Shown: in pieces, positions 21,880 to 63,266 of the stretch | Layout of the letters: each line of letters starts with the position of its first letter | How positions within the stretch are numbered: the first letter of the stretch is position 1 | Source of the DNA: Actinomycetota bacterium | Lineage (GTDB): Bacteria > Actinomycetota > Nitriliruptoria > Nitriliruptorales > JAHWKO01 | Length of the DNA stretch: 64,000 nt | NCBI GenBank assembly: GCA_019347675.1 | Contig: JAHWKW010000011.1 | Location: 5,198 to 69,197 of the forward strand | Reading direction: 5' to 3' | Program-made: the position numbers and the translations under genes | The notes under the pieces: generated by a model | What the model saw: the letters and a program-made list of their open reading frames with translations, nothing else | Databases searched by the model: none | What the model was told of the DNA's origin: nothing

Positions 21880-22338
21880 TCAGCCGGCCTTCTCACGCAT
21901 CGCCGCCACCGCCTCGCTGAGCGCCTCCGGGTCGAGCGCCTCGGCCATCAGGCCGATGTGCTCCTCCCACGCGTCGTCGGGGATGGCGTCCTTCACCTCG
22001 TCCTCCAGGACGTGGTACACGGTGAGGCCCAACTGGGCCTCGGCCAGAGGACCGGCGTAGCTGGGATCGCCGAGAACGACCGTCTCGGCAGCGATCTCGG
22101 CGCTCTCGGGGTCAGGCGCCCCGAGGATGACGAGCAGGTTGTCGGTGCCGTGCTCGTCCGCCAAGTTCTTGATCGCTTCCTGGCTATCCAGGTCCATGGC
22201 CCCCGCCGCCGTTCAGACGAAGCACTCGGTGGCGGTGAACGCCACGTCGCCTCCGGCCTCCTTCACACAGGCTTCGATGGCGGGGCCGGCGACACCGTCG
22301 CGCTCACCGATCACGATCACTTGTTTCCCGTCGAACAT
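21880..22338 (-). CDS. grdA: Glycine/sarcosine/betaine reductase complex selenoprotein A (in-frame TGA = Sec at 22213-22215)
   Basis: Joining the tail of track ORF 22213-22644 (MFDGKQVIVIGERDGVAGPAIEACVKEAGGDVAFTATECFV) through TGA to TAAGAMDLDSQEAIKNLADEHG... (ORF 21880-22197) reproduces the GrdA redox motif CFVU-TAAGAMDL. There is a GGAGGGA ribosome-binding site before ATG 22338. Confidence 0.9.
22179..22192 (-). promoter_or_regulatory. Candidate SECIS hairpin for grdA
   Basis: On the mRNA, 20 nt after the UGA, lies CCUGG-AUAG-CCAGG. The stem is short, so this is tentative. Confidence 0.3.
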
Positions 22339-29952: not shown

Positions 29953-30159
29953 CGGCCCGGATCGTACCGATCCACGGCATCCGCCGGGCCGATCACGTGC
30001 GAACCCCTGTGTCCCGACGGCCCTCCCGGGACAGCGCCCGCCGTCGGTCCACCCCGGGCTAGTCCAACTTGCCTAGTCCCGGGTTGAGCAACGTGCGTCT
30101 GCCAGGGCCCGCTGCCAACGACGACCTCTCCGGTCGTACGCCCACAACCGGAGAGATCG

Positions 30160-49031: not shown

Positions 49032-49793
49032 ATGGACCAACTGCGCCGCCCGTTCCTGCTCGTGGCGGTGGCGATGATCGTCCTCGTCGTGCTGGTCGAG
49101 GTGGGCAGCCGCTGGGCATCCGGCGGGGCTGCTCCGGTCGCGAGGGTCGCGCAGGTTCCCGGTCTGGAGGAACTTCGCGGCGCAGAAGCCGCATCACTAG
49201 CGCGGGTCGCGGAGCCACCCGGCCGGGGGATCTTCGCGATGGCGCTGCTGGACGGGGTACTCGCGTTTCGCATCGCACTGATGGGCATGGCGCTGGTGAT
49301 CCCTGCACGCGTCCTCGGTCGCGTGCAAGGGATCGCCACGGCGGTCCTGAGCCTCCTGTTCCTACTGGGCGGCATCGGCGGCCTGCTGTTCCTGTTGACC
49401 GAGTTGAGCCTCATGGTCGGGCTGTTCACCGCCGCCCCGTTCGGCACGCTGGTCTACCTTGGCCTGTGGGGGTTCTTCCCGCGGGGCGATGCCGCCGCCC
49501 TGCTCAGCCTGCTGCTGTTCCTGAAGCTCGCGTTCGTGGTGTTCCTGGTGCTGGCACAGCCGAAATTCCTCCAGGTCAAGGCGCTGGTCGCGCTGGTGGC
49601 GACGTCGCTCGTGGCCAACCTGATCTTGGCCTTCCTCCACGGGCTGATTCCCAACCCGGTGACCAGCATCGCCGACGAGATCGGCGCCATCATCGTGGTG
49701 ATACTGGGGCTGGTCTGGGCTGCGTTGATGTTGGTTGGGGCGATCCCGGGAATCGTCAAGGCAGTGCGGGTGGACCGGGCGCTGGCCCGCTGA
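49032..49793 (+). CDS. Hypothetical polytopic membrane protein
   Basis: Start at ATG 49032 (MDQLRRPFLLVAVAMIVLVVL). About 7 TM helices. I recognised no family motif. Confidence 0.55.
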   Translation: MDQLRRPFLLVAVAMIVLVVLVEVGSRWASGGAAPVARVAQVPGLEELRGAEAASLARVAEPPGRGIFAMALLDGVLAFRIALMGMALVIPARVLGRVQGIATAVLSLLFLLGGIGGLLFLLTELSLMVGLFTAAPFGTLVYLGLWGFFPRGDAAALLSLLLFLKLAFVVFLVLAQPKFLQVKALVALVATSLVANLILAFLHGLIPNPVTSIADEIGAIIVVILGLVWAALMLVGAIPGIVKAVRVDRALAR

Positions 49794-49797
49794 CGAC

Positions 49798-50265
49798 CTA
49801 GTCAGCGAGCGCAAGCGAGCAGTCAGATCCGACGGTGCGGCAGAAGATGGTCGCCGTTGCCCCGTCCTGCCCCACGGGGATCTTCAGCGGGAAGTCCCCG
49901 GACTCCGGTCGCCAGTCGTCGATCACGACGTCGTCGGGATTGTTCGGGGCGAGGTCGATCTCCACCGCGGGAACGCTCGGGCGCACCGCCGTCAGGGACA
50001 GCAGACGGGTCGGGGCGCCTGCCCGTGCGATCTCGACCTGGCAGCTCGTGAGCGCAGGGATCAGGAACCGTCGGGCCGTCCGGTCGAAGCAGCCGGAAGC
50101 GATGTGCTCAGCTTCGACGGCAGGTGCCTGCCGGAGTTGGAAACGTTCCACCCAACCGTGGTCATCGGGATCAACGCTGGCCTGCTCACGGTTCGCGCCC
50201 ACGATGACGAGCACGACGAACAAGAGGACGACGAGCACGATCAGGACGGTCACCTTCCCAGGCAT
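49798..50265 (-). CDS. Hypothetical N-terminally anchored protein
   Basis: Signal-anchor MPGKVTVLIVLVVLLFVVLVIVGA, then a domain of about 125 aa containing 4 Cys. Unknown function. Confidence 0.5.
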   Translation of the reverse strand: MPGKVTVLIVLVVLLFVVLVIVGANREQASVDPDDHGWVERFQLRQAPAVEAEHIASGCFDRTARRFLIPALTSCQVEIARAGAPTRLLSLTAVRPSVPAVEIDLAPNNPDDVVIDDWRPESGDFPLKIPVGQDGATATIFCRTVGSDCSLALAD

Positions 50266-50364: not shown

Positions 50365-51293
50365 TCACGAGGGCTGCTCCGCGGGAAGGCGGCGGACCTG
50401 TCCGGGATCGAGCGGCTGGACGGGTCGGATGGTGGCCTCGGTCGGGACCTCGATGCGGATGCATTCGGCGATGCTGTCCTTCGGGAAGCGGCGCAGCACC
50501 GTCACTGTTGTGCGTCCTCGGGGCACGTTGTCGTCACGGTCTATGACGATGACCTCGATATCGTGCCGGGCGAAGCGCGGACACCCTGCCGACAAGCGCA
50601 CCTCGGCGGATGGGCCGGTCCCGATCGGCTCGTTGCCGCGGAGGTCGATCCAGACGATGTCGAGGGCGTCTGTCGGGTCGTCGTCTTCGACGTCGACCTC
50701 AAGGGTGGTGCGCAGGAACTCCTGGTCGCCGTCCGACTCGTTCGCCGTGAACGGGCTGTCCTCCGCCGCCGGCCTGATCTCCGCGATCGTCGGCCCGGGG
50801 GTACCCGTGTCATCTGCGGGCAGCGGGCCGTCCCTGGCGACAATCGCGATCACCGTCCCACCACAACCACCGCGGCGACAACAGCGGCGATCCACCAGGG
50901 GAACGGACGCGGCGAGCGCCCTTCGGGGACCTCCACGCTGATGCGCTGACTCTCGTGATGGACGTCGTCGGGATCGTCCTCGGCATGGAGCCGTGACGGG
51001 AGGCTCTGGGCGTTGCTCAACCACCTTGAGCCGGACGTGTGACGTGCCGGCCGCCGCGTCCGCCGGCACGGCCACGTCCACCGTGAACATCACCGCCTCG
51101 TCGACCCCCGCCTCGCGCACCGGTTCGCGGACCGTGTACCAGTGCTCGTGAGCGGGATCATCGGTCAACGCCATCGCACGCATCGTGCGGGCCGCGCCGG
51201 TCTTGTTCTGCACGCTGAACACCACCGACCCGGCGCGTGACGCCCCGTCCAAGGGCACGTGGTCGGTCCCGGCTCGATCGTGAAGTAGCTCAT
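50365..51293 (-). pseudogene. Decayed paralog of the CIS-associated membrane protein at 61887-63203 (three frameshifts)
   Basis: ATG 51293 overlaps the stop of the upstream CIS gene (ATGA) and encodes MSYFTIEPG, matching MPYFTIDPG of the paralog. A 1-nt deletion follows (CCGGGACC here versus CCAGGGACC in the paralog), and the homology continues in another frame (TDHVPLDGASRAGSVVFSVQNKTGAAR...). A second shift comes before AEDDPDDVH..PFPWWIAAVVAAVVVVG. A third comes at the TGA within the TM segment. Confidence 0.6.
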
Positions 51294-51856
51294 GCGCGAC
51301 CGTCCTCGTCCTGCGGGGCTGGTTCCTCGTCTGGGCCGGCGGTGCGCGGGTAGACGATGTCGTATGTGGCATGCGCGGGGCGTTCGACACGGACGATCCG
51401 CTCGATCAGCGGCGCCAGGTGCGCGGCAGCCTCCGGGACGGACACCGTGACGTGGAAGCCCGGATCGGTCGCGTCGTCGACCTGGAAGCCGGAAACGCCG
51501 GTGGCGGTCTCCAGGAACAGCAGGAGCCCCTCGGCGGTGCCCCGGCGAGCCGATAGTTGGGGTGCCAGCGCGATCAGGTTGCGCAGACGGCCGAGTCCAG
51601 CGGCGAAGCGCTGTTGCGGACCGCCCTCGGCCGCGTCGGCGAGGACCCAGTCAAGGTCCACCCAGCGGCTGAGGAACGGGACCATGTTGGGAGGCGCCAG
51701 GTAGGGGTCGAGGTACTCGTCGAGCCGTTCCAGGACGGCTTCGGCAGGGGCGTGGAACTGATCCATCGCGTCGAGGAGAGCGATCAGCGGGCTCCCAGGT
51801 TTCAGGGCGGTCTGGTAGACGCCTGGCAGAAGGCGCTGGATGGCCTCGCGTCGCAT
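51290..51856 (-). CDS. CIS baseplate protein, phage P2 gpI-like tail protein (Afp12/Cis12-type)
   Basis: Start at ATG 51856, overlapping the upstream stop (TGATG). Blocks LLPGVYQ, LDEYLDPYLAPPNMVPFLSRWVDLDW and ARRGTAEGLLLFLE match the phage tail protein I domain family. Confidence 0.8.
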   Translation of the reverse strand: MRREAIQRLLPGVYQTALKPGSPLIALLDAMDQFHAPAEAVLERLDEYLDPYLAPPNMVPFLSRWVDLDWVLADAAEGGPQQRFAAGLGRLRNLIALAPQLSARRGTAEGLLLFLETATGVSGFQVDDATDPGFHVTVSVPEAAAHLAPLIERIVRVERPAHATYDIVYPRTAGPDEEPAPQDEDGRA

Positions 51857-54483
51857 CAGGTTCTCACCACCTCGACGTCGTGGTCGCCGGACACGAACAG
51901 CCACGTGGGAGGGAGCGTGACGGATTCATCGAACTCCGACCGGGATGCCCGCGTGAACTCCTCCCCGGGAGGCGTCTCGGGAGCGCCCACGCTGCGGTAG
52001 ACGCCAGCCGGGCCTCCGGCCAACAGCATCGACGTGTCCGGGTCGGTGGCGAGCGTCCGCACCGGGTGGAAGCGCCCGACCTCCCGCAACGGCAGGCCCG
52101 AATCGACGGCCGGCCGCCACCACCGGCGTTCCTCGCCGCGTAGCGGCAGCCGCTGCACCCCTGCCAGATGGGAGGCACCGAAGGCGTGGTGACCGAGGAA
52201 GGCGAGCGCCCAGCAGCTCCCACCTTCCCAGCCGTCACCCAGTTGCTGCCACGTCAACTCCTCGTCCTCGAGGCGGGTCCGGAAGCATCCCTGTCCGGGG
52301 CCACCTCCCTCGGCGGCTGTCCCGGCCCACAGGAACGTGGCGTTGCCCTCGTACTGGACCGCGAGGCTGCGGACGTCCTGCCCCTCGAGACCGGCGTGGA
52401 TGAACGTTCCGGCGCGGCCCTCGAGCCGGGACCGGTAGATGCCCGCCGTTCGCTGGCCAGCGAGCGCGACTGCGAGGTTCCCGCCCGGCTGGGTGTAGGA
52501 GACGACACGGTAGAACCCGAGGTCGGGTTGTCCGGGGTCGACCGAGCTGAAGGCGGCGGTGGCTTCCGGCGTGAGCGCCTGCTCGTACAGGCCCTGCTCG
52601 GTGGCGAGGAGCAACGCCGGGGTCTCGTCACGCTGGATCCATGCCAGGTCCTCGATCGGGAAGGCGAACTGCGCCACCGGCCCATCCCCCCACGTCTCTC
52701 CCAGATCGGTCGAGACGTAGACGCGACCCGCCTCTTCGCCAGCCGGCTGGGTCGTCACCGCGAGGAACCCCGGGCGGCGTCCCAAGCCGATCCGACCGGG
52801 CTCGCGCGGGTACGGCTCGATCCTGCGGACGGTCTCCCCTTCGAACCGCCAGAGCGGCTCCCACCCGATGCCGTCGTTGAGGGAACGGAACACGTCGCTG
52901 CCGCAGGCCGCATACCAAGCGGACGGCTGGTAGGGATCGGCCGCGACGGCGGTGACGTCCGCATCGGGGACCTCGTCGACGTGCAGCCGGACGCGGTCGG
53001 CCCATATCACCCCGGGCTCGGCCAGCAAGATGTCGTAGACGTCCGACACCCGCAGCGCCTGGCCGAACGGCCAGCCGGGCCACGTCTCCCCCTGCGAGGC
53101 CCGGACACGCTGACCGGTCGGGAGCGGGTTGATCGTGCGGTGCAGCCGCTCGAGGACGCGCTGGGTGAGCGCGTTCTCGTCCTCGTCCGACCGGATGCCC
53201 ACCCTGGCACGGACGGTAACCGCCTTGACCTTGGCCCATTTGACGACGCATTCGATGCCGAGCGGCCGTCTGGCCTCGAGCTGGGAGGTGACCTCGGCGA
53301 GCCCATGCGGAGTGGTGCGCGCCTCCAGGTCCGCGCTGGTTACCCGTCCGCGGGATCGGACGCCAGGCTCCACATGCGGGACGATCACCACCTCCACCGA
53401 CCCGCGCGGGGCGTACGACCAGTACTCGCTGCGAGCGAACGCCCGCGCCCGGCTAACCGCCCCGGACCGGCGCGCGATCAACTCGTAGTCGCGCTCAGTG
53501 ACGGCGCGGTCGCGGGCGTGGAACTCGTGCGGGCCGCGGAGCGCGGCGTTCTCCGCAGACTCGGCGTCCCGTCCCCCGATGGCCCGGATCGGGTTGGTGA
53601 CCTCGACGCCAGCCACCTCGTCCAGGAAGGTGGTCAGGGTCCCCGGCGCGACGTTTCCCTCCGGACCACCGCCGGTCCGGTACCAGACCAGCACGTTCAG
53701 GCCCGGTCCGGGCACCCGGGCGAGCCCCCGGACCCGCTCCGCTGCGCCGCCCGCTCCTGGGGCCGCCAGGTCGACCGCCGGGGCGAACATGATCGTGCCC
53801 TCGATCCGGTCGACGCTGTAGACCGCCGCGTCGGGCTCCAGGTCGGCGAAGTGCTCGACCTCCTGCCAGATCCGGTAGGTCCTGCCCTGATGTTCGAGTG
53901 CCGCGCCGCGGACCGTTCCCTCGGTGTCTGCGACCTCCACCGCCACGATCAGGTCGTCGTCCGCGGTCATGACCATGGGCGGTCGCGACACCCGGAGGAC
54001 CTGGCCCGGTTGCCCCGACGTCACGCCGACGTGCTCGCCTTCGACCAGCTCGCAGTGGTACGCGAGCGCTTCGACGTGCTGCTGGCCGGCTGGGATCGCG
54101 GTGGCTGCGGTGAGGACGAATACGGGCTGGTCCCCTTCACCGTCGGAGGCGCCGACGCGCGTGCCGCGCGGGATCTCGAGCGACGCCGTCGTCTCCGCGG
54201 GATCGGCACGGCTGAACCGGAGCGTCGCCCGAGCGGCTCGCGGCGGGAGCAGCTTCACACCGATCAGGTTGAGGTAGGAGCGGTACGCCTTCTCGGGCAC
54301 GCGGTTGAGGCGGTAGATCATCACCTCGGTGAGGTGGGCAAACGCCTCGAGGAGGGTCATCCCCGGATCGCCAGGACCCGCCTGGGCGGTCCATCGCGAG
54401 CCGGACGACCGGATGCGCTCGAGGGCTTCCTCCAGAAGTTGGAGGAAGTCCCGGTCGTCAAGATCGGGAGTCGGGATCGGCAT
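51856..54483 (-). CDS. CIS baseplate J-like wedge protein (Afp11/Cis11-type) with a C-terminal BNR/Asp-box propeller-like extension
   Basis: Start at ATG 54483. MPIPTPDLDDRDFLQLLEEALERIR..WTAQAGPGDPGMTLLEAFAHLTEVMIYRLNRVPEKAYRSYLNLIGVKLLPPRAA is the putative-baseplate-assembly-protein N-terminus. The last ~355 aa contain Asp-box-like motifs (YVSTDLGETWG, FRSLNDGIGWEP). Confidence 0.85.
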   Translation of the reverse strand: MPIPTPDLDDRDFLQLLEEALERIRSSGSRWTAQAGPGDPGMTLLEAFAHLTEVMIYRLNRVPEKAYRSYLNLIGVKLLPPRAARATLRFSRADPAETTASLEIPRGTRVGASDGEGDQPVFVLTAATAIPAGQQHVEALAYHCELVEGEHVGVTSGQPGQVLRVSRPPMVMTADDDLIVAVEVADTEGTVRGAALEHQGRTYRIWQEVEHFADLEPDAAVYSVDRIEGTIMFAPAVDLAAPGAGGAAERVRGLARVPGPGLNVLVWYRTGGGPEGNVAPGTLTTFLDEVAGVEVTNPIRAIGGRDAESAENAALRGPHEFHARDRAVTERDYELIARRSGAVSRARAFARSEYWSYAPRGSVEVVIVPHVEPGVRSRGRVTSADLEARTTPHGLAEVTSQLEARRPLGIECVVKWAKVKAVTVRARVGIRSDEDENALTQRVLERLHRTINPLPTGQRVRASQGETWPGWPFGQALRVSDVYDILLAEPGVIWADRVRLHVDEVPDADVTAVAADPYQPSAWYAACGSDVFRSLNDGIGWEPLWRFEGETVRRIEPYPREPGRIGLGRRPGFLAVTTQPAGEEAGRVYVSTDLGETWGDGPVAQFAFPIEDLAWIQRDETPALLLATEQGLYEQALTPEATAAFSSVDPGQPDLGFYRVVSYTQPGGNLAVALAGQRTAGIYRSRLEGRAGTFIHAGLEGQDVRSLAVQYEGNATFLWAGTAAEGGGPGQGCFRTRLEDEELTWQQLGDGWEGGSCWALAFLGHHAFGASHLAGVQRLPLRGEERRWWRPAVDSGLPLREVGRFHPVRTLATDPDTSMLLAGGPAGVYRSVGAPETPPGEEFTRASRSEFDESVTLPPTWLFVSGDHDVEVVRT

Positions 54484-54917
54484 CAGACCTCCTCCCCGTG
54501 CAGGCGCAGCGGGTACACGAACTCGCTCAGCTCCTGCGTCGCGCGCAGCCGGTACCGGATGGTGATGACGAGCGTCTCGGCGTCGGCGCCATCCCGGTTG
54601 GCGTCGACGTCCAAGACGTCGATCCGGGGTTCCCATCGGCGCAGGGCTTGGCGCACGTAATGGATGGCCAGACCCGCGGTCGTATCGTTGTTGAGCGCGA
54701 ACACCAGCCAGTGGATCCGGCACCCGTACTGAGGCCGCATCACGCGCTCGCCGGGGGCCGTCGACAGGAGGAGCAGGATCGACTGCCGGACCGCCGCGGG
54801 TCCGTCGACCAGCTCGAGCGCCCCGGTCGGGGCGACCTGCAGGCCAGGGCGGGCCACCCCCGGTTCCCATTCGGGATGGGCGAACCGGAACGAGCTGACG
54901 GGACCGCCGTCAGGCAT
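54483..54917 (-). CDS. CIS baseplate wedge protein, GPW/gp25 family (Afp9-type)
   Basis: VRQSILLLLSTAPGERVMRPQYGCRIHWLVF..AIHYVRQALRRWEPRI is the gp25 lysozyme-like fold signature. The start is at ATG 54917. Confidence 0.85.
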   Translation of the reverse strand: MPDGGPVSSFRFAHPEWEPGVARPGLQVAPTGALELVDGPAAVRQSILLLLSTAPGERVMRPQYGCRIHWLVFALNNDTTAGLAIHYVRQALRRWEPRIDVLDVDANRDGADAETLVITIRYRLRATQELSEFVYPLRLHGEEV

Positions 54918-55260
54918 CAGCGTTGAGCAGGGTCTGCCCGGGGGTGCGGACCGAGTAGTGGAAGGTGCCCGGAGGCGCACCGTCAGTCAGTCCCTTCACC
55001 GTATCCAGGCACACCGGGTGCCCATCGATCCTGACCAGCGCCGAGTAGCCGGTCTGCACCCGAAGCGTCGTCATGCACGGCTTCTGGCCGGTCAGGGGGT
55101 TGAGGTTCGGGCACCCCACAATGGTGCGGTCCTCCGGATCGGTGGCGACCAGCAGCGGGCGTCCCTCCACCGTGACCCACCGCTGGGACGGACGGTTGCG
55201 GACCACGCCCAACTGGTGGTCGCACACCACGACGGCCGCGTCGGTCATCGCGCGCATCAA
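54910..55260 (-). CDS. PAAR-like spike-tip protein (Afp10-type)
   Basis: 116 aa, immediately after the VgrG-like gene with an ATGA overlap. It has a Cys/His/Gly pattern (VVCDHQLGVV..VGCPN..KPCMTT..IDGHPVC) compatible with a PAAR/DUF4280-like cone. The call rests mainly on position and size. Confidence 0.6.
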   Translation of the reverse strand: MMRAMTDAAVVVCDHQLGVVRNRPSQRWVTVEGRPLLVATDPEDRTIVGCPNLNPLTGQKPCMTTLRVQTGYSALVRIDGHPVCLDTVKGLTDGAPPGTFHYSVRTPGQTLLNADA

Positions 55261-56774
55261 CCGCGCTCCAGGTCGATGGCGTCCGCAACGACCGTGATGC
55301 GCTTGCCCGGGGCCTCGATCAGCAGGTCACATGCTGCGTGCAACCGGACCTGGTCAGGTGTCAACTCGACGAAGCTCCCGGCAGCGTTCTGCACGCGCAC
55401 CCGATCGGCGGTCTCGTCGAGGACGATGCGCTGCCCCGCCCGCGTGGTGAACGTGTACCGGCGAACCCGACCGTCCTGCACGCCGGCGTCGGGCGCCGGC
55501 TCCGAACCGTACAGGCCGCCCACCACCACGCCCCGCGCCGGGTCGCCGTGCGGCAAGGCGACGAGCACGCGATCGTCGACGTCGGGCAGTGCAACCAGGC
55601 CCTTACCGGCTCCGGCTCCGGACAGCACGACCTGCAGCCATTCGGTCGGGGCGTCGTCGAAGGTGGGGAGGTGGACCTTCACCCGGCCGAGCTGTTCCGG
55701 GTCATCGACGTCCACGACACGACCGGGCGCCAGCGCCGCCGGGCGGTCCGTCCGGCGGTCGCGGGTCGGTTCGGTGCTGAACTCGGTGAGGAAGCCCGGC
55801 TCCCCCACGGTGTGGGTCGCGCTGGTCACGACGTAGCGCCCCGCGAGCCCCGGGGCGGTGTCGTCGACGCGGACGGGCGTTCCGGGGCGGATCCGGTGGT
55901 CGCCCTCGGCGACCCCCCACAGCGTCACCTCGCCAGCCGAGCGCACGTCCAGCTCGGCCTGCGCCTCGCCCCGGGTGAGATCGGCCGTGGGCGCCCCGAC
56001 GTGGGCGAGAACCCGCTCGTCGCTGCCCCCCACCTGGGTCGCAGTGACGCTGGCGCCGACGTCTCTGGACGTGCGCGCGTCGCCAGCCTCCTCCCGGTGG
56101 ACATCGATCCGCCGCGGGTCCCACCCGAGCGCGACGACCCGGCGAGCAGCCCGCTCCGCGTTGACCTCCGTGCGGGCCTGCCACAGGTTCCTTCCCAGCT
56201 CCAGACGAATCTCGTCCCCGGCACCCTCGAGTGTGATCAAGTGCAGCGCCCCGTCGTGGACCGTGAAGAACAGGCCCGCCCGGGCGGTGACCTCCTGGAG
56301 GAGTTCGAGGTCGCTCTGCGCGTGCTGGGTGATCTGCGGCCAACGGGGGCCGCTCTCCGCCACGTCGACGTCCAAGCCGACCGCCCCTGCGAGCTGCTCC
56401 GCCAGCTCCGCCGGGGTCAGCTGCGCGAAGGTGCGGACCTGCTGCCGCTTGCGTAGGCGGTGCAGCAGGTCATAGGCGCGTACCCGCACCACCACGCCGC
56501 GGTCACCCTCGTAGACATGCTCGACGACGGTGGTCTCGCCCTCGAACAGGGCTGTGCCGTCCGCGGCCAGCCCGACCTGGAGTTGCGTGCCCGGTTGGAG
56601 GCGGCGCCCCACGTCGAACGTCGACGGCGGGTCGACGAACGTCAGCTCCGCTTGGGTCGGGACCGACAGTCGCTGGCGGATCCGCAACGCGCTCAGCGGC
56701 CGCCGTTCCCCCTCGTTGAGGGCGGCTCCGTCGACCCGGACGAGCAGTTCGGGCAGGCTGGCGATCGCGGTCAC
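55257..56774 (-). CDS. CIS spike/hub protein, VgrG-like (phage gpD + gp5 OB fold; Afp8-type)
   Basis: Start at GTG 56774 (GTGA overlap). gpD-like region (FEGETTVVEHVYEGDRGVVVRVRAYDLLHRLRKRQQVRTF..SDLELLQEVTARAGLFF). gp5/VgrG OB region (GRVVDVDDPEQLGRVKVHLPTFDD..WLQVV..GLVALPDVDDRVLVALPHGDPARGVVVGGLY). Confidence 0.85.
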   Translation of the reverse strand: MTAIASLPELLVRVDGAALNEGERRPLSALRIRQRLSVPTQAELTFVDPPSTFDVGRRLQPGTQLQVGLAADGTALFEGETTVVEHVYEGDRGVVVRVRAYDLLHRLRKRQQVRTFAQLTPAELAEQLAGAVGLDVDVAESGPRWPQITQHAQSDLELLQEVTARAGLFFTVHDGALHLITLEGAGDEIRLELGRNLWQARTEVNAERAARRVVALGWDPRRIDVHREEAGDARTSRDVGASVTATQVGGSDERVLAHVGAPTADLTRGEAQAELDVRSAGEVTLWGVAEGDHRIRPGTPVRVDDTAPGLAGRYVVTSATHTVGEPGFLTEFSTEPTRDRRTDRPAALAPGRVVDVDDPEQLGRVKVHLPTFDDAPTEWLQVVLSGAGAGKGLVALPDVDDRVLVALPHGDPARGVVVGGLYGSEPAPDAGVQDGRVRRYTFTTRAGQRIVLDETADRVRVQNAAGSFVELTPDQVRLHAACDLLIEAPGKRITVVADAIDLERG

Positions 56775-57511
56775 CGCGTGGACCGCCGTGGCCGGGTCGG
56801 CGGGATCCTCAGCGCGGTGCCGGCCTCGATCCCGAACGGGTCGTCCAAGTCGTTGTAGACGGCCAGCAGTCGCCAACTGAGCGGGTTGTCCAGCGCCTGG
56901 GCCGCAACCAGGTCGGGGCGCGTGCCGGCGTACCCGCCCGCGTCGTCGCCGTCGCCGATGGCTCTGACCACCCCGACCGGCTCCGCGTCGAGATCGATGG
57001 CACTGGGTGGCTGCGGTGGTTCCGGGAACTCGCGGAACATCTCCTCGGACTCCTCGGCGACCCGGAGCAGCTTCAGCTTCAGCCAGGACCGGCGGGGGAC
57101 TCCCTCGGCGGTGAAGTCGTCGAACCGCTCGGCCGCCGCGGCGACCACCCCCGGCACGTTCCACGACTTGCCCCACACGAACCGCACCAACGGGGGGCGG
57201 CGGACGCCCTGCTGCCGGGCGGTGTTCTCGGCCAGCATCATCAGCGGCCGGGTGAGTTCACGCACGTCCTGGTACAGCTCGGCAGTGCGCTCGCTGATGG
57301 TGATGTCGAACAGCAGGTCGAGGTCGAGCTCGGTCCGGCCACCACCGGTGAACAGCAACGGGTCGTCCATCAAGGTACTGCCGGTGAGCTGGCCAGCGGC
57401 GGTGCTGCGCGGTCGTACCCCGGCCGCCCGGCTGACGACCACCGTGCTGGGGTTGAGCAGGCAACCGATCCGCTGCCCGGTCTCCTCGATGAGGAAGGCG
57501 ACCCGTTCCAC
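56771..57511 (-). CDS. CIS tube-initiator / baseplate hub protein with a LysM-like C-terminus (Afp7-type)
   Basis: Start at GTG 57511, overlapping the upstream TAG (TAGTG). Tube-like N-terminal half (VAFLIEETGQRIGCLLNPSTVVVSR..LLFTGGGRTELDLDLLFD). The C-terminus DLVAAQALDNPLSWRLLAVYNDLDDPFGIEAGTALRIP resembles LysM. The upstream 355 aa of track ORF 56771-58576 are rejected as Arg/Pro-rich and out of frame. Confidence 0.7.
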   Translation of the reverse strand: MERVAFLIEETGQRIGCLLNPSTVVVSRAAGVRPRSTAAGQLTGSTLMDDPLLFTGGGRTELDLDLLFDITISERTAELYQDVRELTRPLMMLAENTARQQGVRRPPLVRFVWGKSWNVPGVVAAAAERFDDFTAEGVPRRSWLKLKLLRVAEESEEMFREFPEPPQPPSAIDLDAEPVGVVRAIGDGDDAGGYAGTRPDLVAAQALDNPLSWRLLAVYNDLDDPFGIEAGTALRIPPTRPRRSTR

Positions 57512-58662
57512 TAGAAGCCTTCCTGCTCGCGATCGAGCCTGGCGAGGTGCTCGGTGCCGTCGCCCAGTGGCTGCGTGTCCGTTCCCGGCGACAGCGCCGG
57601 CAGGGCAGGCAGGTCGGGCAGGGCGGGCCACAGCTCCTCGGCTCGGCGCGGGGCCTGGAAGGCCGCGCTGCCGGGTGCGCCTGCGGGGCTGTCGGCCGAC
57701 CGTGGCAACGGGGTGGGGGCGCTGGCCGGGTCGGCCGGGAACCGGACCGATGGGCTCTGCGGCGCGGGCTCCGGCGGGAAGCGGGGCGTGACGTGGCGCT
57801 CGCGGCCCCCGCCGGGGTCGTCGTGCGGCGGCCAGGCGGCCGGCCCGGACGCGGCCGGGGAGACGGGCTGTGGTGCGCTGGTCGCGGCCATCCCGGTGCC
57901 GTGATCGGCGAGCCGGCCGGCGTCGGACGGCGCAGCGTGCGTGTCGGCGGCGGAGGCCGGACCGGCGCCTGGCTCGGAGGCCGGCTGTGGGGGCGGCTGT
58001 GGGGGCGGGTCTGCTTCGCGCGGGGGCTGCGGTTCGAGCCTCCCCCTCGCGCCTGCGCTCGGGCCGGATACCTCGGGGTATCTGGGGCGGGGGCGGGCGT
58101 CGGCGTGGTCCATGGGCCCCGCGGTCGACGGCGTCCGAGCTGGCGCGTCCGGCTGCGCGAAGGAGGTCTGCATCTGTCGCGGCGGCGGCGGGGGGACGGC
58201 ACCCGCGGTGCCAGGAGATCCCTGTTCGGCCGGGTCGTGCGCGCCAGCGCTCGGACCGGGGTTCCCGGTCTCGCCTGATCGTTGCGGCCAGGCGGTGCCG
58301 TCCGCGACCACCGCGAACGGGAGCCATCCTCCTTCCCAGGGCGGTGGCCCGTCCGGTTGGGTAGCCCCGCCTTGCACTGGACGGGCAGACGCGCGCGGCA
58401 GGTCCGCGCGCGGCGGTCCGACCGGGCTCTGGTGGGTGCGCAGTCCTGCATCGAGGAGATGCGGGGCGCGTTCCCGAAGCAGCGCGACCCAGTGGTCGGG
58501 CGCGGATCCCAGCGCGGATCCCGGCGCGTTCGGCGAGGCCCCCGGCGGGGGCTGCGTCGTCGGCGTCGCGACCCATCCGTCAAGGGTCGTCGCGACCCGC
58601 CGGAGCCTACTGGCCAGGCGCGCCAGGAGGCGGTCCCTCAGCCGGCCGACCTGTCGTGTCAC
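57511..58662 (-). CDS. Pro-rich low-complexity protein in the CIS operon (possible tape-measure analogue)
   Basis: 383-aa ORF between the tube and tube-initiator genes, on the same strand. It has an ordered N-terminus (APDHWVALLRERAPHLLDAG) and C-terminus (EELWPALPDLP..LARLDREQEGF), with about 250 aa of P/A/G/S-rich sequence between them. The start is uncertain: ATG 58662 would overlap the tube gene by 56 nt. Confidence 0.5.
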   Translation of the reverse strand: MTRQVGRLRDRLLARLASRLRRVATTLDGWVATPTTQPPPGASPNAPGSALGSAPDHWVALLRERAPHLLDAGLRTHQSPVGPPRADLPRASARPVQGGATQPDGPPPWEGGWLPFAVVADGTAWPQRSGETGNPGPSAGAHDPAEQGSPGTAGAVPPPPPRQMQTSFAQPDAPARTPSTAGPMDHADARPRPRYPEVSGPSAGARGRLEPQPPREADPPPQPPPQPASEPGAGPASAADTHAAPSDAGRLADHGTGMAATSAPQPVSPAASGPAAWPPHDDPGGGRERHVTPRFPPEPAPQSPSVRFPADPASAPTPLPRSADSPAGAPGSAAFQAPRRAEELWPALPDLPALPALSPGTDTQPLGDGTEHLARLDREQEGF

Positions 58663-59113
58663 GTTCGATGCCTTCGTAGACGAGCGTCAGACACTCGATG
58701 GCGAGCGCCTTGCTCATGGCGTCGAGCGGCGCCCCGACCCAGCGCGTGGGCCAGGCCCGGGTGAGGTTCCAGCGCAGCACCTCCCCGACGGCGTCCTGGT
58801 CGCGCATCACGATCGAGACCTCCCGCCGGTCGATCTCGCCGGCCGCCGCCGACATCAGCCAGTCCCACATCTGGTCGGACTGGGTCAGCCCGTAGCACAG
58901 CGTGATCTCCGCGTAGTCGACCTGCCCGGGGATGTACCGGGGCGTGACGTTCGCGCCGCCCTCCCGGTACTTGATCGCCTCGACCTGGACGCCCATGCCG
59001 GACACGCTTGTGAAGTGGCCGTTGCCGATGCCCTGCACCTCGACGTGGAAACGGAACGACCGGAGTGGATCGGTGACGCTCCCCGGTGCGGCCGTTGCAC
59101 CTATCTCAGCCAT
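58607..59113 (-). CDS. CIS inner tube protein (T4 gp19-like; Afp1/Cis1-type)
   Basis: DPLRSFRFHVEVQGIGNGHFTSVSGMGVQVEAIKYREGG..YIPGQVDYAEITLCYGLT..MWDW..WNLTRAWPTRWVGAPLDA is the conserved phage-tail-region tube family pattern. Confidence 0.85.
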   Translation of the reverse strand: MAEIGATAAPGSVTDPLRSFRFHVEVQGIGNGHFTSVSGMGVQVEAIKYREGGANVTPRYIPGQVDYAEITLCYGLTQSDQMWDWLMSAAAGEIDRREVSIVMRDQDAVGEVLRWNLTRAWPTRWVGAPLDAMSKALAIECLTLVYEGIERDTTGRPAEGPPPGAPGQ

Positions 59114-59123
59114 GCTGCACTCC

Positions 59124-60368
59124 TCAGCTCTCGCCTTCGCCGGCCTCGACGCCGCGCTCCGTGTGGGTGATCTCGAAGATGACGAACTCGGCCGGCTTGA
59201 CCGGGGCGATGCCGATCACGCATCGGACCTCGCCCGCGTCGACGCTCTCTGGGGGGTTGGTCTGCTCGTCGCAGCGGACGAAGAAGGCCTCGTCGGGTGT
59301 CCGGCCCATCAGCGCCCCGTCGCGCCAGACGCGCGTCAGGAAGGCGCGCACGTCACGGCGGATCCGGTTCCACAGCTGGTAGTCGTTGGGCTCGAAGACG
59401 ACCCACCGTGTCCCCTCGGCGATCGACTCCTTGAGCATGTTCACGAGCCGGCGCACCGGCACGTAGAGGTACTCGCTGGCCGCGTCGGCCAGCGTTCGCG
59501 CCCCCCACACCATGATCCCCTCGGCCGGGAAGTAGCGCAGGCAGTTGACGCCGCGCGGGTTGAGGACCCCCTGCTCCTCGCGGGTGACGCGGTAGGTGAG
59601 GTTCAGCGCGCCACGGACCGGTTCGTTCGCCGGCGCCTTGTGGACGCCCCGCGTCGCGTCGGTGCGGGCGTAGATCCCAGCCAGACTGCCGGAGGCCGGT
59701 GCGGTCACCTGCCCGGGACCGAACGGGTTGCCGACGACGACCTGAGGGAAGTAGACCGCGGCATGCGTGCTGTTGGGCGGCCGGTACCCGCCCGCGCCAG
59801 ACAGGCCACCGCCGCCACCCCCGCCTTCGCTTGTGGTGTCCTCGTCCTCGTCGCCACGCTCGCTGCGGCGGGACGTCGTGGGTTCGGCGGTGGCCACCTC
59901 GGTCAAGCGCTCGACGCGATCCACATCCGCCGGGGCGTCCAGGATCGCGAAGCGGTCCTCCATCTTCTCGCAGTGGGTGATCAGCGCCTGGTACGACTCG
60001 ATGTCGGTACGGCCGGGCGCTGCCACGATCGCGAGCTCGTCGACCGCCTCGAACAGGCTGAGCCCCTGCCTGGGACCTGTGATCTCGGCGTCCTCGGATC
60101 CGAGGTTGACGATGTGAAGTCGCCGGCCACCGTTGTCGAAGAACCCCTGGACGGCCAGCGCCAGCGCGGTCGGCTGGGGATCGTCGACGTCGGCGAAAGT
60201 GTCGACGAACCGGGGCCACCCTTCGACGGCCACGATCTCGTTGACCCGCGCGTTGCTGTCAGGCGCCACGCCGACGAACCCTGCGGTGCTGGTGCCGACC
60301 CTTTGGATCGGACGGGCCCCTGAGGGGACCTCTCGGACGTAGACGCCGGGCGTCAGGTAGGTGGTCAC
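59124..60368 (-). CDS. CIS contractile sheath protein (Afp2/Cis2-type)
   Basis: GTG start. The N-terminus TTYLTPGVYVREVPSG..VGTSTAGFVGVAP and the C-terminal block RGVNCLRYFPAEGIMVWGARTL..YVPVRRL are classic phage tail sheath signatures. Confidence 0.9.
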   Translation of the reverse strand: MTTYLTPGVYVREVPSGARPIQRVGTSTAGFVGVAPDSNARVNEIVAVEGWPRFVDTFADVDDPQPTALALAVQGFFDNGGRRLHIVNLGSEDAEITGPRQGLSLFEAVDELAIVAAPGRTDIESYQALITHCEKMEDRFAILDAPADVDRVERLTEVATAEPTTSRRSERGDEDEDTTSEGGGGGGGLSGAGGYRPPNSTHAAVYFPQVVVGNPFGPGQVTAPASGSLAGIYARTDATRGVHKAPANEPVRGALNLTYRVTREEQGVLNPRGVNCLRYFPAEGIMVWGARTLADAASEYLYVPVRRLVNMLKESIAEGTRWVVFEPNDYQLWNRIRRDVRAFLTRVWRDGALMGRTPDEAFFVRCDEQTNPPESVDAGEVRCVIGIAPVKPAEFVIFEITHTERGVEAGEGES

Positions 60369-60369
60369 G

Positions 60370-61047
60370 TCATTCCTCCTGCATCTCGCAGCGGATCACC
60401 AGCGGTTCGCCGTCGGTCGCGACGTCCGCGGTCGCGACGAACTGCCGGCCTTTGGCGCTGATGCGGAACCGCTGCTGGCCTTCCCCGCGGGGGACCGACG
60501 GGAAACCGAAATGCCCGCGCTCGTCGCTGTAGGCACGACGGTCGAGGCCGACCAGCTCGATCCGAGCATGAGGGATCGGCACCGACCCGGGACCGACGAT
60601 CCGCCCCTCCAGCGTCCCGACCGCCGACAGGTCGACCGCCAGCGGCCGCACCACCAGGGAGACCTGCGGCTTGGGCCGCGGCACGGTGACCTCCACGTCC
60701 ACGACGAACGACGGGCGAGGTGGCACCCCAAGGGCCAACCAGACCTCGGGCGGCAGCGCGCCGAGGTCGACGTCCCAGTCGGGCACCTGGAGGGCCGTCA
60801 CCAACAGCTCCTGCAGGCGGCCGGCGGCGTCCTCGCCCTGCGTGAGCACCAGGCACCGCAGCCCGAACCTCAGCGGCTCCCGGTGGCCGGCGTCGCGCAG
60901 CTCCTGACGAGGACTCAAGGCCAACGGGTACAGGACGACGTCGGCGTCCGCAGCCGAACCGGGCTCCTCCCTGCTGATCGTGACCGGCCCCAGAACCGAC
61001 TGCGCCCACTCCCGCAGAGCCTCCTCTACGTGGCGAACGGATTCCAC
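60370..61047 (-). CDS. CIS tail terminator/cap protein (DUF4255, Afp16-type) with a carboxypeptidase-regulatory-like C-domain
   Basis: DUF4255-like N-domain (VVLYPLALSPRQELRD..FGLRCLVLTQGED..LQELLVTALQ). The C-domain GTLEGRIVGPGSVPIPHARIELVG..RAYSDERGHFGFPSVP is CarboxypepD_reg-like. The stop lies 1 nt before the sheath start. Confidence 0.75.
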   Translation of the reverse strand: MESVRHVEEALREWAQSVLGPVTISREEPGSAADADVVLYPLALSPRQELRDAGHREPLRFGLRCLVLTQGEDAAGRLQELLVTALQVPDWDVDLGALPPEVWLALGVPPRPSFVVDVEVTVPRPKPQVSLVVRPLAVDLSAVGTLEGRIVGPGSVPIPHARIELVGLDRRAYSDERGHFGFPSVPRGEGQQRFRISAKGRQFVATADVATDGEPLVIRCEMQEE

Positions 61048-61263
61048 CCTCGAGTCTCGTTCTACACGGGAACACGCGCCGCGTACCGACGCCCCAGGTC
61101 AACCCCGCGCACATCTGCGCCCGTCGGGATCCTAGCGCAATCCGTGCGGATAAGGCAGACCTGATGCAGTTCGGATTCACGGCCGTCGACGGTCGAATCC
61201 GGTGCGCCCCAGGCGAGGGCCAGCGCCGTCGGGGTTCGATCGACCTCAGCACGGAGCTGACCC

Positions 61264-61869
61264 TTACACCGCGTACGCCCATTCCTCGTGCCACGTGTGG
61301 GGATAGACGCCACACATGAAGTAGTCCTTGAAGGAACGGATCGGCTTGCTCTGGTGGTCGTGGTAGAGGAGCCAGTAGGGCAGGACCGTGGCCAGGACGT
61401 AGTTGACCATCACCAGGGGCACGTAGGTGGGACCGAAGATGCGGGCCTGGACGACATGCATGTACTCGTGGTTGGCGGTGTGCTTGGAGGTTCCTGCTTC
61501 GACGTTGCCGATGGTCGTGGCGAAGCCGGGAAAGAGACCATCCCGGAGCACGACCGTGCTGCGGGACTCGCTCTGCGTCTTGTCTGGACGATTGCCGAGG
61601 ACCAGGTTGAGCGTCAAGAAGAGGGAGCCCAGGATCGTGTTCGGCAGGCTCCAGGTGTGGTCGACGATCAAGAGCCAGACCCCGCGCGCATCGTTGCCGT
61701 AGCTCTTCGTGACGACGACGGCGACGGCATGCACGACGCCCAGCGCCAGCCCGACGGCACCGAACGCGACACCGCTCGCGGGGTTCATGGCCGCGCCGCC
61801 CAGACCGAGCGCGGCCGTGTTCGTGATCACACGAACGATCGCGACCGTGGCGGCGTAACTTGTCGGCAT
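61264..61869 (-). CDS. Membrane protein with an HExxH motif (putative metallopeptidase-like)
   Basis: 201 aa with about 4-5 TM helices and the motif NHEYMHVVQARIFGP between helices. A 100-nt sample I counted by hand within this gene is 58% GC, against roughly 70% estimated elsewhere in the window. It lies directly upstream of the CIS operon on the same strand. Confidence 0.55.
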   Translation of the reverse strand: MPTSYAATVAIVRVITNTAALGLGGAAMNPASGVAFGAVGLALGVVHAVAVVVTKSYGNDARGVWLLIVDHTWSLPNTILGSLFLTLNLVLGNRPDKTQSESRSTVVLRDGLFPGFATTIGNVEAGTSKHTANHEYMHVVQARIFGPTYVPLVMVNYVLATVLPYWLLYHDHQSKPIRSFKDYFMCGVYPHTWHEEWAYAV

Positions 61870-61886: not shown

Positions 61887-63203
61887 TCAGTCGACCGGCG
61901 CATCCGATGGAACTCGCTGCGGGTCCGAGGCCTCAGAGCCTGCGCCGGCACCCAGGTGGCCGTCGTTCCCCGCCCCGCTGGAGTCCTCCGCAAGTTGCCC
62001 GGTTTGTTCGTCGAACCGCCAGTAACCGACAAGGCCGGGAAGGTCACCGCTCAGCGTCTCGTTCATCGTTGCCGTGACGTCGTTCTGCGAACGTGCCACG
62101 TTCCAGACCCGGACCTCATCGATCAAGCCGTGGAAGGAGTCTTCCCAGATGCCGATGAGCAGCACGTTCGCATTCGAGACCTGACCAGTGTGAGGGGCGA
62201 CGTCGAGCAGTTGGCCATCCCGATAGATGCGGATCTGGGCGCCATCGTAGGTGGCTGCCAGATGCTGCCACTGGCCGACCTGGAGGTTGCCAACTCCTGA
62301 GCTCGCAGAGTCGCATCCGGGAACGCAGACGCTCAGCCCCCATCGACTGTGGTCGTTGCGGTCAAGGAACAGGGTCCACGCGGAGCCGGAGAAGGGCGGG
62401 AGGGTTTTGGCGTGTTGAACGACCGCAGCGAAGCTTCCGTTAGATGCCACCGATTGTGGTCTGACCCACGCCTCCACCGTGAACTGGGTCTGGAAGTTGA
62501 AGTCGCCTGTTGTGTTGGGGACGCTGACGAAGTCGTTTTCCCCGTCGAACTGCAGGGCGCCGTTCGGCACACCCGACGACACGACGAGGTCGACGGCGGT
62601 GCCCGGCTCGACGTCCGTGCCAGCCGCAGGGTCCTGCGCGACGACCCGACCTTCCGGCTCCTCGTCGGAGGGCTGCTCGGTGACGTCCCCGAGCGCCAGA
62701 CCAGCGGAAACCAACCGCTCCTGCGCCGCCTCGACGGTGAGCCCGCCCACGTCAGGAACACCGACCCCGCCGTCGTTGCCGACGACGATCCACATCACCA
62801 CCGCCACCGCGACCACCGCGACGACCACCGCGACGATCCACCACGGGAACTTCCCCCCACCGTCCGGCGGGACCTGGACCGGGACCTGCTGGCTGACGTC
62901 GTGGACGTCGTCCGGGTCGTCCTCCGCGACCGCCGTCAAGCGGAAGTGGTACCTCCCGGCCTCGACCTCGGGGGGCACCGCGACGTCCACGGAGAACTGC
63001 AGCGTTTCGTCCACACGAGCCTGCTGCACGGGCTCCTTGACGGTGTACCAGTCCTCCTGGGCTGGGTCCTCGACCGAGACGCGCGAACGGATCTGTCGAG
63101 CGACGCCACTCTTGTTCTGCACGCTGAACACCACCGATCCGCGACGCGTGGACGTGTCAACAGCGACGTGGTCGGTCCCTGGATCGATGGTGAAGTACGG
63201 CAC
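61887..63203 (-). CDS. Bitopic membrane protein: conserved cytoplasmic N-domain, TM, PASTA and LamG (concanavalin-like) ectodomains
   Basis: GTG start (MPYFTIDPGTDHV..GSVVFSVQNKSG). TM segment WWIVAVVVAVVAVAVVMWIVV. PASTA module (VPDVGGLTVEAAQERLVSAGLALGDVTEQPSD..VVAQDPAAGTDVEPGTAVDLVVS). LamG-type domain (LQFDGENDFVSV..FTVEAWVRP..WQHLAATYDGAQIRIYRDGQL..IDEVRVWNVARS). Confidence 0.75.
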   Translation of the reverse strand: MPYFTIDPGTDHVAVDTSTRRGSVVFSVQNKSGVARQIRSRVSVEDPAQEDWYTVKEPVQQARVDETLQFSVDVAVPPEVEAGRYHFRLTAVAEDDPDDVHDVSQQVPVQVPPDGGGKFPWWIVAVVVAVVAVAVVMWIVVGNDGGVGVPDVGGLTVEAAQERLVSAGLALGDVTEQPSDEEPEGRVVAQDPAAGTDVEPGTAVDLVVSSGVPNGALQFDGENDFVSVPNTTGDFNFQTQFTVEAWVRPQSVASNGSFAAVVQHAKTLPPFSGSAWTLFLDRNDHSRWGLSVCVPGCDSASSGVGNLQVGQWQHLAATYDGAQIRIYRDGQLLDVAPHTGQVSNANVLLIGIWEDSFHGLIDEVRVWNVARSQNDVTATMNETLSGDLPGLVGYWRFDEQTGQLAEDSSGAGNDGHLGAGAGSEASDPQRVPSDAPVD

Positions 63204-63266
63204 CCCGGTTCCTTCCTCATGTTCGCGAGACCACCACGTGTCAGGGATGGCTGATCCCGGTGGCGA

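Follow-up and report, generated by a model that had tools for sequence, protein, structure and literature searches.

We find that the stretch of DNA analysed here (64,000 nucleotides of an Actinomycetota bacterium, contig JAHWKW010000011.1 of assembly GCA_019347675.1; hereafter the window) encodes a contractile injection system (CIS) that very probably belongs to a distinct, compact lineage without a linked AAA+ ATPase and is not a prophage. This kind of system is already known and its nearest subtype has been characterised: as judged from sequence matches, the closest described relative is the cytoplasmic CIS of Streptomyces (CISSc). What we could not find in the literature searched is the combination of traits seen here, namely a lineage-wide lack of a linked ATPase, a single tube protein, a Cis11 protein that carries a propeller, and three conserved membrane proteins, one of them a PapD-TM-PASTA protein (TM, transmembrane helix) at the site of the fibre gene; none of the papers there paired "contractile injection" with "PASTA domain", and the genera that host the lineage yielded nothing specific. 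From the linkage of the membrane-protein genes to the injection genes, we lean slightly towards a mode of action that would be internal to the cell and directed at its membrane, as in CISSc.

The existence of the lineage is best seen in gene order. When genomes were scanned with a sheath alignment, 80 loci were obtained, and 24 of these form, together with the window, a compact set with the common order cap, sheath, tube, variable Pro-rich protein, Cis7-like hub, VgrG, a small Cys/His protein (g7), gp25, baseplate J with an extension, and gpI. The hosts include Actinomycetota (Micromonospora, Catellatospora, Solwaraspora, Arthrobacter and Kineosporiaceae), Myxococcota, Proteobacteria (Chromatiaceae, other Gammaproteobacteria and Caulobacter), Chloroflexota, Pyrinomonadaceae (Acidobacteriota), Planctomycetota and "Candidatus Tumulicola", and the gene set and order are kept across at least six phyla at 40 to 80% protein identity. 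In a sheath tree built from the sampled loci, separate from any placement against Chen's IIa-IId subtypes, the compact sheaths form one bipartition (97 of 100 neighbour-joining bootstraps), distinct from the other sampled lineages including the Streptomyces loci, to which they are 46 to 48% identical compared to at least 50% within the clade. The hallmarks of the lineage are the single tube gene, a BNR propeller fused to baseplate J, and a bitopic membrane protein encoded after gpI.

The absence of a linked ATPase is equally consistent. In a tblastn search with four CIS ATPases, no Afp15-type AAA+ ATPase was detected within 10 kb on either side of any of the 24 compact loci, nor in the window (best E 0.09), while the same search was positive in 16 loci of other lineages including Streptomyces, which served as the positive control. 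The tblastn queries were ATPases recovered from other loci and replaced a Walker-A regular expression that had missed the Streptomyces ATPases. An earlier note on this DNA had listed three components as missing from the window (the ATPase, a tail fibre and another copy of the tube gene), and our tblastn and profile searches agree: no tube or sheath paralog lies within the 64 kb, and the fibre (Afp13) and tape measure (Afp14) families gave no profile match in the cluster. These absences are, however, not peculiar to the window, where the note had placed them, but are fixed traits of a lineage that spans several phyla. The AAA+ ATPase and the Pvc16_N cap are treated as marks that separate extracellular CIS (eCIS) from phage tails. 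Afp15 was counted as one of eight core subunit types and is encoded by more than 85% of eCIS loci (Chen et al., PMC6899500), eCIS regions were said to "invariably" encode the ATPase (Vladimirov et al., PMC10020575), and Geller et al. required at least 10 core genes (PMC8213781). By these criteria the present lineage is atypical, and it may for that reason have been under-sampled.

The structural genes of the system are the following.

60370-61047, minus strand: g1, probable tail terminator or cap, with a divergent Pvc16_N-like N-terminal domain and a C-terminal CarboxypepD_reg immunoglobulin-like (Ig-like) domain
59124-60368, minus strand: g2, contractile sheath of 414 aa, a short form (Phage_sheath_1 and 1C)
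58607-59113, minus strand: g3, the sole inner-tube protein, gp19/Hcp-like (Phage_T4_gp19 5e-34, TIGR02241 2e-36)
57511-58662, minus strand: g4, Pro/Ala-rich protein in the tape-measure position, with conserved terminal motifs
56771-57511, minus strand: g5, Afp7/Cis7-like tube initiator or hub (CIS_tube 1.5e-12)
55257-56774, minus strand: g6, VgrG-like spike (Phage_GPD, Phage_base_V, VgrG_rel 2e-57)
54910-55260, minus strand: g7, small Cys/His protein between spike and gp25, a candidate spike tip
54483-54917, minus strand: g8, gp25/TssE-like baseplate wedge (GPW_gp25 1.3e-27)
51856-54483, minus strand: g9, baseplate J (Cis11-like) with a C-terminal BNR/Asp-box beta-propeller (Baseplate_J 2e-16, TIGR02243 4e-69)
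51290-51856, minus strand: g10, gpI/Cis12-like baseplate wedge (TIGR02242 1.6e-11, just under the cut-off)

The window has a GC content of ~70% and raw lists of open reading frames (ORFs) are hence noisy, but all ten co-directional ORFs proposed earlier between 51290 and 61047 exist with the proposed ends, and the GC content at their third codon positions (GC3) is mostly of the coding type. The tight coupling that had been read from overlapping stops and starts is also present in the sequence. The cap and sheath genes meet at TGAcGTG, the sheath and tube genes are separated by a 10-nt gap containing GGAG, g4 starts 56 nt inside the tube gene, and the junctions that follow are, in order, TAGTG, GTGA, TTGATG, an 8-nt overlap, TGATG and TGATG. 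From gpI the coupling continues through an ATGA overlap (51290-51293) into an eleventh gene, so that g1 to g10 and the downstream genes form one translationally coupled operon. This unit runs past 51290 to 49798, and related genes reach the window end at 64000.

Family matches were judged with Pfam and NCBIfam profiles against their curated cut-offs. Six core proteins (sheath, tube, Cis7-like hub, VgrG, gp25 and baseplate J) lie above them and gpI lies just below, and it is to this extent that the locus has the full contractile core claimed for it. The sheath matches Phage_sheath_1 and 1C at 3.9e-15 and 8.4e-17, and its best PDB match is the CISSc sheath 8BKY (1e-99), with 8BL4 at 7e-97; E-values against the sheaths of Afp, PVC, AlgoCIS and tCIS range from 1e-40 to 1e-50, and those against pyocin and T4 are around 1e-9. 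The tube protein is closer to CIS5_fam (101.6 bits) than to CIS1_fam (50.1 bits), both under their cut-offs. The best PDB match of the hub is the CISSc LysM protein 9gtp_P (1.9e-4), that of gpI is the CISSc chain 9gtp_E (1.6e-4), and the gpD and gp5 OB domains of the spike lie within one ORF. For the baseplate J part of g9 the sole PDB match is again from CISSc (9gtp_1K, 3e-53), and a profile of its C-terminal domain of ~375 aa matches BNR propellers (3b7f at 5.6e-13, GH74 xyloglucanases and sortilin), with Asp-boxes that are conserved across the loci.

Three proteins of the core are harder to assign. The label of DUF4255 cap for g1 has no direct support in Pfam, where the search gave no DUF4255/Pvc16_N (PF14065) match and only CarboxypepD_reg at the C terminus (6e-8). 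However, a profile of 16 members of the cap family weakly matches the "Pvc16 N-terminal domain" chain 9gts_0A of Streptomyces Cis16 (E 9e-4 over 39 residues), and the cap gene of one relative (L085; L numbers denote individual loci) bears a weak precomputed Pvc16_N match. These two weak matches make the assignment plausible, and g1, which is conserved in 24 of the 25 loci, is probably the tail terminator. The Pro-rich protein g4, described as such before, belongs to no family (no match in Pfam, NCBIfam or PHROG) but has a counterpart in every lineage locus, with a length of 327 to 679 aa, a conserved position, and the terminal motifs PPxHWLxL (N-terminal) and WPxLP...RLDREQxG (C-terminal); by its position it is a candidate for a length determinant or a lumen cargo.

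The third of these, g7, had been called a PAAR-like tip, a label that the window protein does not earn by itself, as it has no match in Pfam (including PAAR_motif PF05488 and DUF4280), PDB or PHROG. Among its relatives, three members show sub-threshold PAAR_motif matches (E 0.005 to 0.022), and the family has the invariant residues C13, H15, C50 and C62, counted in a protein whose true start is likelier the ATG at 55257; a single-sequence AlphaFold2 (AF2) model with a mean predicted local distance difference test score (pLDDT) of 35.8 was discarded. We regard g7 as a candidate PAAR-like spike tip. Among the loci compared it is confined to those of the compact lineage, and it has 373 representative clusters in a library of 1.84 billion proteins. 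Elsewhere, the same type of domain shares a 250-aa protein with an OmpA peptidoglycan-binding domain or is part of a 738-aa protein with no recognised domain (proteins P0167 and P0304), fusions that are reminiscent of "evolved" PAAR/VgrG effectors.

A tail-like gene cluster in a bacterial genome could also be a decaying or domesticated tail module of a prophage with no current function. We scanned about 45 further ORFs of the window and found no capsid, portal, terminase, integrase or lysis families among them, nor any TssJ/L/M, TssK, TssA or ClpV families. The other ~50 kb encode housekeeping functions, among others methionine synthase, MTHFR, ABC transport, LytR-CpsA-Psr, a Wzz-type kinase, glycosyltransferases, glycine reductase, two-component regulators, ATP sulfurylase, a CitMHS transporter and a luciferase-like monooxygenase. 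The closest phage sheath, from Bacillus phage BCD7, is 40% identical over 68% of the protein, and others are at ~23%. IMG/VR holds 79 loci with a related sheath, one of which belongs to the lineage, a 7.5-kb fragment with CIS genes only; of the proteins compared with PHROG only that of the tube matches a family, and the accessory proteins match none. Among the 24 related loci there is no conserved flanking family typical of phage heads. The frameshifts in one membrane-protein gene of the operon (g11, see below) would fit a remnant, as would the circumstance that the DNA past 64000 lies outside the stretch read, but the operon's other eleven genes are undamaged and remain coupled, and gene set and order persist over at least six phyla. 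Together with the missing head, terminase, integrase and lysis genes, this conservation led us to reject the prophage reading, which we regard as highly improbable; these family scans and the phage-sheath and PHROG comparisons uphold the earlier view that the locus is neither a prophage nor a canonical type VI secretion system (T6SS).

Our results place the locus next to CISSc but not within it. CISSc (also called SLP; eCIS subtype IId; structures 8BKY, 8BL4, 9GTP and 9GTS) supplies the best or only PDB relative of the sheath, baseplate J, the Cis7-like and Cis12-like proteins and, weakly, the cap. The two also share a single contiguous VgrG, a single Cis11, the lack of a fibre and of a recognisable tape measure, and cluster-linked bitopic proteins, represented in CISSc by CisA (encoded behind Cis12) and Sco4256-58. 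In contrast to CISSc, the locus has no linked Cis15 AAA+ ATPase and no second tube protein Cis1b, its sheath is ~120 aa shorter, its Cis11 bears a BNR propeller and its cap a CarboxypepD_reg domain, it comprises ~13 genes instead of 19, and no DUF4157/Sle-type genes were found at it. The compact sheath clade is separate as well, and the lineage occurs in unicellular and Gram-negative hosts. The resemblance to the cytoplasmic Streptomyces system that had been pointed out before is therefore right as to the nearest neighbour, and does not extend to the ATPase, Cis1b or membership of the clade.

The remaining known systems are more distant. With Afp, PVC and AlgoCIS the locus shares the gp19-type tube, the sheath (E 1e-40 to 1e-47 against these three), and homologs of Afp7, Afp8, Afp9, Afp11 and Afp12, whereas it has neither Afp15 nor Afp13 fibres, no recognisable counterpart of Afp14, no toxin genes and only one gene each for sheath and tube, and its gene order begins with the cap. 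With R-type tailocins such as pyocin R2 it has in common the lack of an ATPase, the single sheath and the single tube, and a likeness to pyocin R2 has been noted before for CISSc, in its minimal cap and its Cis11/Cis12 wedge (PMC12237407). The pyocin sheath is nevertheless a distant match (2e-9), the tube here is of the gp19 type, the cap is probably Pvc16_N-like, and there is no lysis cassette, no fibre with its chaperone and no helical tape measure.

The ten-gene extent given to the system earlier proved too small. At least three more conserved membrane-protein genes belong to it, along with two upstream paralogs and possibly the gene at 61264-61869. The additional features are the following.

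61887-63203, minus strand: gm2, intact bitopic membrane protein (Pfam PASTA 5.8e-17, Laminin_G_3 3.6e-26)
63267-64000, minus strand: gm3, 3' part only, running off the window, with two PASTA domains (5.5e-31) and a C-terminal Ig-like region
50365-51293, minus strand: g11, frameshifted bitopic membrane-protein gene at the canonical site directly after gpI, a paralog of gm2
49798-50265, minus strand: g12, last operon gene, a small protein with, by its architecture, an N-terminal transmembrane (TM) helix and a 4-Cys ectodomain
49032-49793, plus strand: g13, polytopic membrane protein of ~253 aa, convergent to the operon, with homologs at cluster ends
61264-61869, minus strand: gm1, small membrane protein of 201 aa with an invariant HExxH..Q.R..GP, conserved in position
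61048-61263, minus strand: intergenic region of 216 nt upstream of the cap gene, presumed promoter or leader

The bitopic protein is the most informative of these. It is present in 23 of the 25 lineage loci, nearly always directly after gpI, and the earlier picture of a locus without a fibre or a T6SS membrane complex overlooked both this protein, which sits in the fibre/CisA position, and the propeller fused to baseplate J. The gm2 protein begins with a PapD/MSP-like beta-sandwich (aa 1-115); next come an FPWW motif and the TM helix at aa 121-145, and the C-terminal part contains PASTA and LamG domains. A query with the single N-domain sequence found one protein and an alignment query was needed to recover 39, the C-terminal parts of which are PASTA, IPT/TIG, META, CARDB or NPCBM_assoc domains; the ectodomain consists of Cys-rich repeats in the Myxococcus loci and of a CBM-like domain in Micromonospora. 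The genomic surroundings of three of the bitopic proteins were checked (Tessaracoccus, Cryobacterium and an ENA contig), and each proved to be encoded within a compact CIS cluster. In one rearranged member (L085, ENA contig_3560), the cap gene and a bitopic PASTA gene are divergent from the sheath-to-gp25 block, which indicates that the cap/anchor pair can move as a unit.

An AF2 model made from an alignment of 38 sequences predicts with a pLDDT of 92.9 a beta-sandwich at aa 4-111 and the TM helix at aa 121-145. By Foldseek the sandwich resembles PapD-like pilus chaperones and MSP/VAP domains (E ~1e-5, TM-score 0.4 to 0.55, 8 to 21% identity). As in VAP, the MSP-like domain would be cytosolic and followed by a single TM helix, but the likeness to VAP/MSP tethers and PapD-like chaperones is an analogy of fold, with common descent unsupported at a sequence identity of about 10 to 17%, and the large ectodomain is unlike VAP. 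We infer that the N-domain is cytoplasmic and the C terminus outside, since the protein lacks a signal peptide, has basic residues ahead of the TM helix, and carries C-terminal domains of obligately extracytoplasmic types (PASTA and disulfide-rich repeats).

In the window the bitopic gene is duplicated, with a broken copy (g11) in the canonical position and an intact upstream copy (gm2) that gained PASTA and LamG. The tblastn high-scoring segment pairs between g11 and gm2 lie in two different frames, GC3 switches frame, and an alignment of 50840-51296 with 62760-63206 shows indels of -1, +34, +3 and -1 nt relative to the gm2 DNA. g11 is either a pseudogene or a product of assembly errors; we considered and rejected it as a normal 341-aa gene, the long ORF being an artefact of reading through the frame changes. 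The first PASTA domain of gm3 is 74 to 82% identical to that of gm2, which makes gm3, the N terminus of which lies outside the window, a probable third paralog.

Two types of bitopic proteins in Streptomyces offer models for this protein, which is like Sco4256-58 in architecture and fold, by their published description, and like CisA in position. CisA (Sco4242) is encoded right after Cis12 and is bitopic with the N terminus in and the C terminus out, and both contraction and function depend on it (PMC12237407). In Sco4256-58, a PapD-like domain comes first, followed by a single TM helix and a C-terminal domain that varies; purified particles contain these proteins, which show toxicity in Escherichia coli, and a triple mutant has empty tube lumens and phenocopies the loss of the CIS (PMC10020575, PMC10066040). 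The bitopic proteins here could be loaded effectors equivalent to Sco4256-58 and not anchors, a sub-variant of the cell-internal mode in which a free cytoplasmic particle would fire under stress and deliver them into the producer's membrane, with regulated cell death as a result. The published architecture and fold (PMC10020575, PMC10066040) fit this idea, and so does the presence of several paralogs with similar N termini, as in Streptomyces. A hidden Markov model of the bitopic protein also matches two ATPase-encoding, CISSc-like loci of other lineages, L073 (E 1.2e-8) and L080 (4.6e-5). Still, a folded beta-sandwich with PASTA and LamG domains would need to be unfolded to enter the tube lumen, the gene occupies the fibre/CisA position directly after gpI, and the likeness to Sco4256 comes from the published description and not from a sequence alignment, such that we hold the effector role to be possible but doubtful.

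The proteins matched in these two loci, at L073:730-3080 (minus strand) in Stackebrandtia and L080:2231-3487 (minus strand) in a metagenome-assembled genome (MAG) of Limnocylindrales, have two N-terminal beta-sandwiches, a TM helix and a C-terminal domain; their relationship to the N-domain of the compact lineage is distant, and they may be members of the Sco4256 family. A search by architecture for Sco4256-58-like proteins in the Streptomyces loci L074, L076 and L082 found none.

In the mode of action that we slightly favour, the particle would assemble in the cytoplasm, with g4 inside the tube, where it would either set the length or serve as cargo. The cytoplasmic PapD/MSP-like domain would bind the periphery of the baseplate, where the J propeller or gpI are the natural candidates, and the ectodomain (PASTA and LamG in this case) would hold onto the cell wall or peptidoglycan. 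The particle would in this way be recruited to the inner face of the membrane, as it is by CisA in Streptomyces; alternatively, in line with the proposal made for Sco4256-58, the bitopic protein would itself be loaded and end up in the membrane. Contraction would drive the spike into or through the producer's own envelope, and the outcome could be regulated envelope damage and death or a T6SS-like export. The machine would be a single-shot device, since there is no ClpV/Afp15-type ATPase, unless an unlinked ATPase serves it.

Several points weigh against this membrane-directed mode. Both the location of the particle and the contact between the PapD-like domain and the baseplate rest on gene linkage and analogy, and in this genome it is the bitopic copy in the canonical position, g11, that is frameshifted. 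The ATPase search extended to 10 kb around each locus and to the window, and an unlinked genomic copy is possible; the stretch ends at 64000, with the upstream DNA past it out of view. The lineage is found in diderms and monoderms, and one model of how the envelope is crossed may not suit all its members. In addition, the known contractile particles without an ATPase, the R-type tailocins, are extracellular, and BNR/Asp-box propellers usually bind or cleave extracellular carbohydrates, a role that fits a released particle with the propeller as its receptor-binding domain.

The last two points are also what speaks for an extracellular, tailocin-like particle that would be released by lysis and bind to other cells by the J propeller in place of fibres, with the bitopic protein, g12 and g13 serving in holin-like release, self-protection or immunity rather than in anchoring. 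A holin function is conceivable for the small membrane proteins encoded at the 3' end, and the fusion of g7-like domains elsewhere to OmpA or to long extensions is as seen in evolved spike tips. However, the window contains no endolysin, spanin or recognisable holin family and none is conserved over the 24 loci, and the fibre gene is absent. The cytoplasmic domain of the bitopic protein is conserved while its ectodomain is hypervariable, as one would expect if the protein were an adaptor touching a conserved partner in the cytoplasm. Furthermore, the nearest characterised relatives are cytoplasmic, which is the case for CISSc (PMC10066040) and likewise for the related IId systems of Chloroflexota and Deinococcota (PMC12998442). 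On balance we consider a released particle rather unlikely.

The conserved membrane-protein gene in the cluster is a trait shared with membrane-anchored CIS (T6SS, T6SSiv, the Anabaena tCIS and the haloarchaeal T6SS), and in haloarchaea such a gene correlates with T6SS-like anchoring and action and was the criterion by which anchoring was inferred (PMC11566945), a precedent for the membrane-directed mode. The locus could also encode an envelope-anchored single-shot injector, a minimal analogue of the T6SS that also works in Gram-positive bacteria. The PapD/MSP-like domain would clamp the propeller-bearing baseplate to the membrane, the PASTA, TIG or CBM ectodomain would fix the complex in the wall, and g4 would be expelled as cargo, with assembly, loading and recycling proceeding without an ATPase. 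The locus differs from these systems in that it lacks TssJLM, TssK, TssA and ClpV, and its membrane proteins are unlike Hbor_38620, which has six TM helices, or the Cis13 of tCIS in their architecture. We consider the version with an envelope-anchored single-shot injector unlikely.

Genes for proteins of 150 to 165 aa with the architecture and Cys pattern of g12 lie beside the bitopic gene in L001, L003, L004, L007, L009, L012, L022, L070, L083 and L084; BLAST gave no significant match between g12 and these proteins, and the likeness is one of architecture. g13 shares 41 to 45% identity with 3'-terminal cluster genes of Cryobacterium (L084), Catellatospora (L004), Tessaracoccus (L083) and Solwaraspora (L001), its protein cluster has members in 12 loci, and it has no match in Pfam or PHROG. 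gm1 lies directly upstream of the cap gene in six Micromonospora loci (L016, L018, L020, L021, L023 and L024) and one of Kineosporiaceae (L025) and has no match in Pfam, PDB or PHROG. Possibly it is an accessory gene that only the actinobacterial members carry, and its product may be a membrane-embedded metalloprotease tied to the injection system. The idea that its HExxHVVQ motif makes it a DUF4157 (PF13699) "CIS effector core" was dropped, as six members gave no match at E<=10.

Between gm1 and the cap, 61048-61263 is the sole sizeable non-coding gap upstream of the operon and is for this reason presumed to hold its promoter. It contains no sigma-70 consensus and no Rfam match, and the Rfam scan gave no RNA family anywhere in the 64-kb window; scans for sigma-70 promoters and terminators are uninformative on DNA of 70% GC.

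Extracellular, membrane-anchored and free cytoplasmic modes are currently recognised for CIS. The present lineage dispenses with the linked ATPase and the second tube protein while keeping three membrane proteins, and thereby provides a naturally occurring set of genes close to the minimum for contractile injection, which could be useful for studies of mechanism and for engineering. It also links peptidoglycan-binding PASTA domains to a CIS. Its cultured, non-filamentous hosts (Arthrobacter, Cryobacterium, Micromonospora, Myxococcus and Caulobacter) would allow the encounter between a CISSc-like machine and the membrane to be tested.

A few other observations were made in the window. Both the gene for GrdB (24153-25598, minus strand) and that for GrdA (~21880-22335, minus strand) carry a TGA in frame at the canonical selenocysteine motif, which reads AILTAT*GTGTRCG in the first and ECFV*TAAGAMD in the second. 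Gly_reductase and DUF5940 genes flank them, and Rfam gave no SECIS-type RNA family in the window. Glycine reductase selenoproteins in an actinobacterial MAG suggest an anaerobic, Stickland-type metabolism. Two genes (19274-21175 and 30088-31791, both plus strand) encode secreted proteins with CW_binding_2 (CWB2) repeats, a wall-binding module best known from clostridial S-layer proteins, and one of them has weak M10/M12 metalloprotease matches. Finally, ~1.1 kb past the last conserved CIS-linked gene, a gene at 47060-47899 (minus strand) encodes a 279-aa protein that has no family match and contains near-perfect coiled-coil repeats (LEALAGRVDALAAAQVRTEERLE...).

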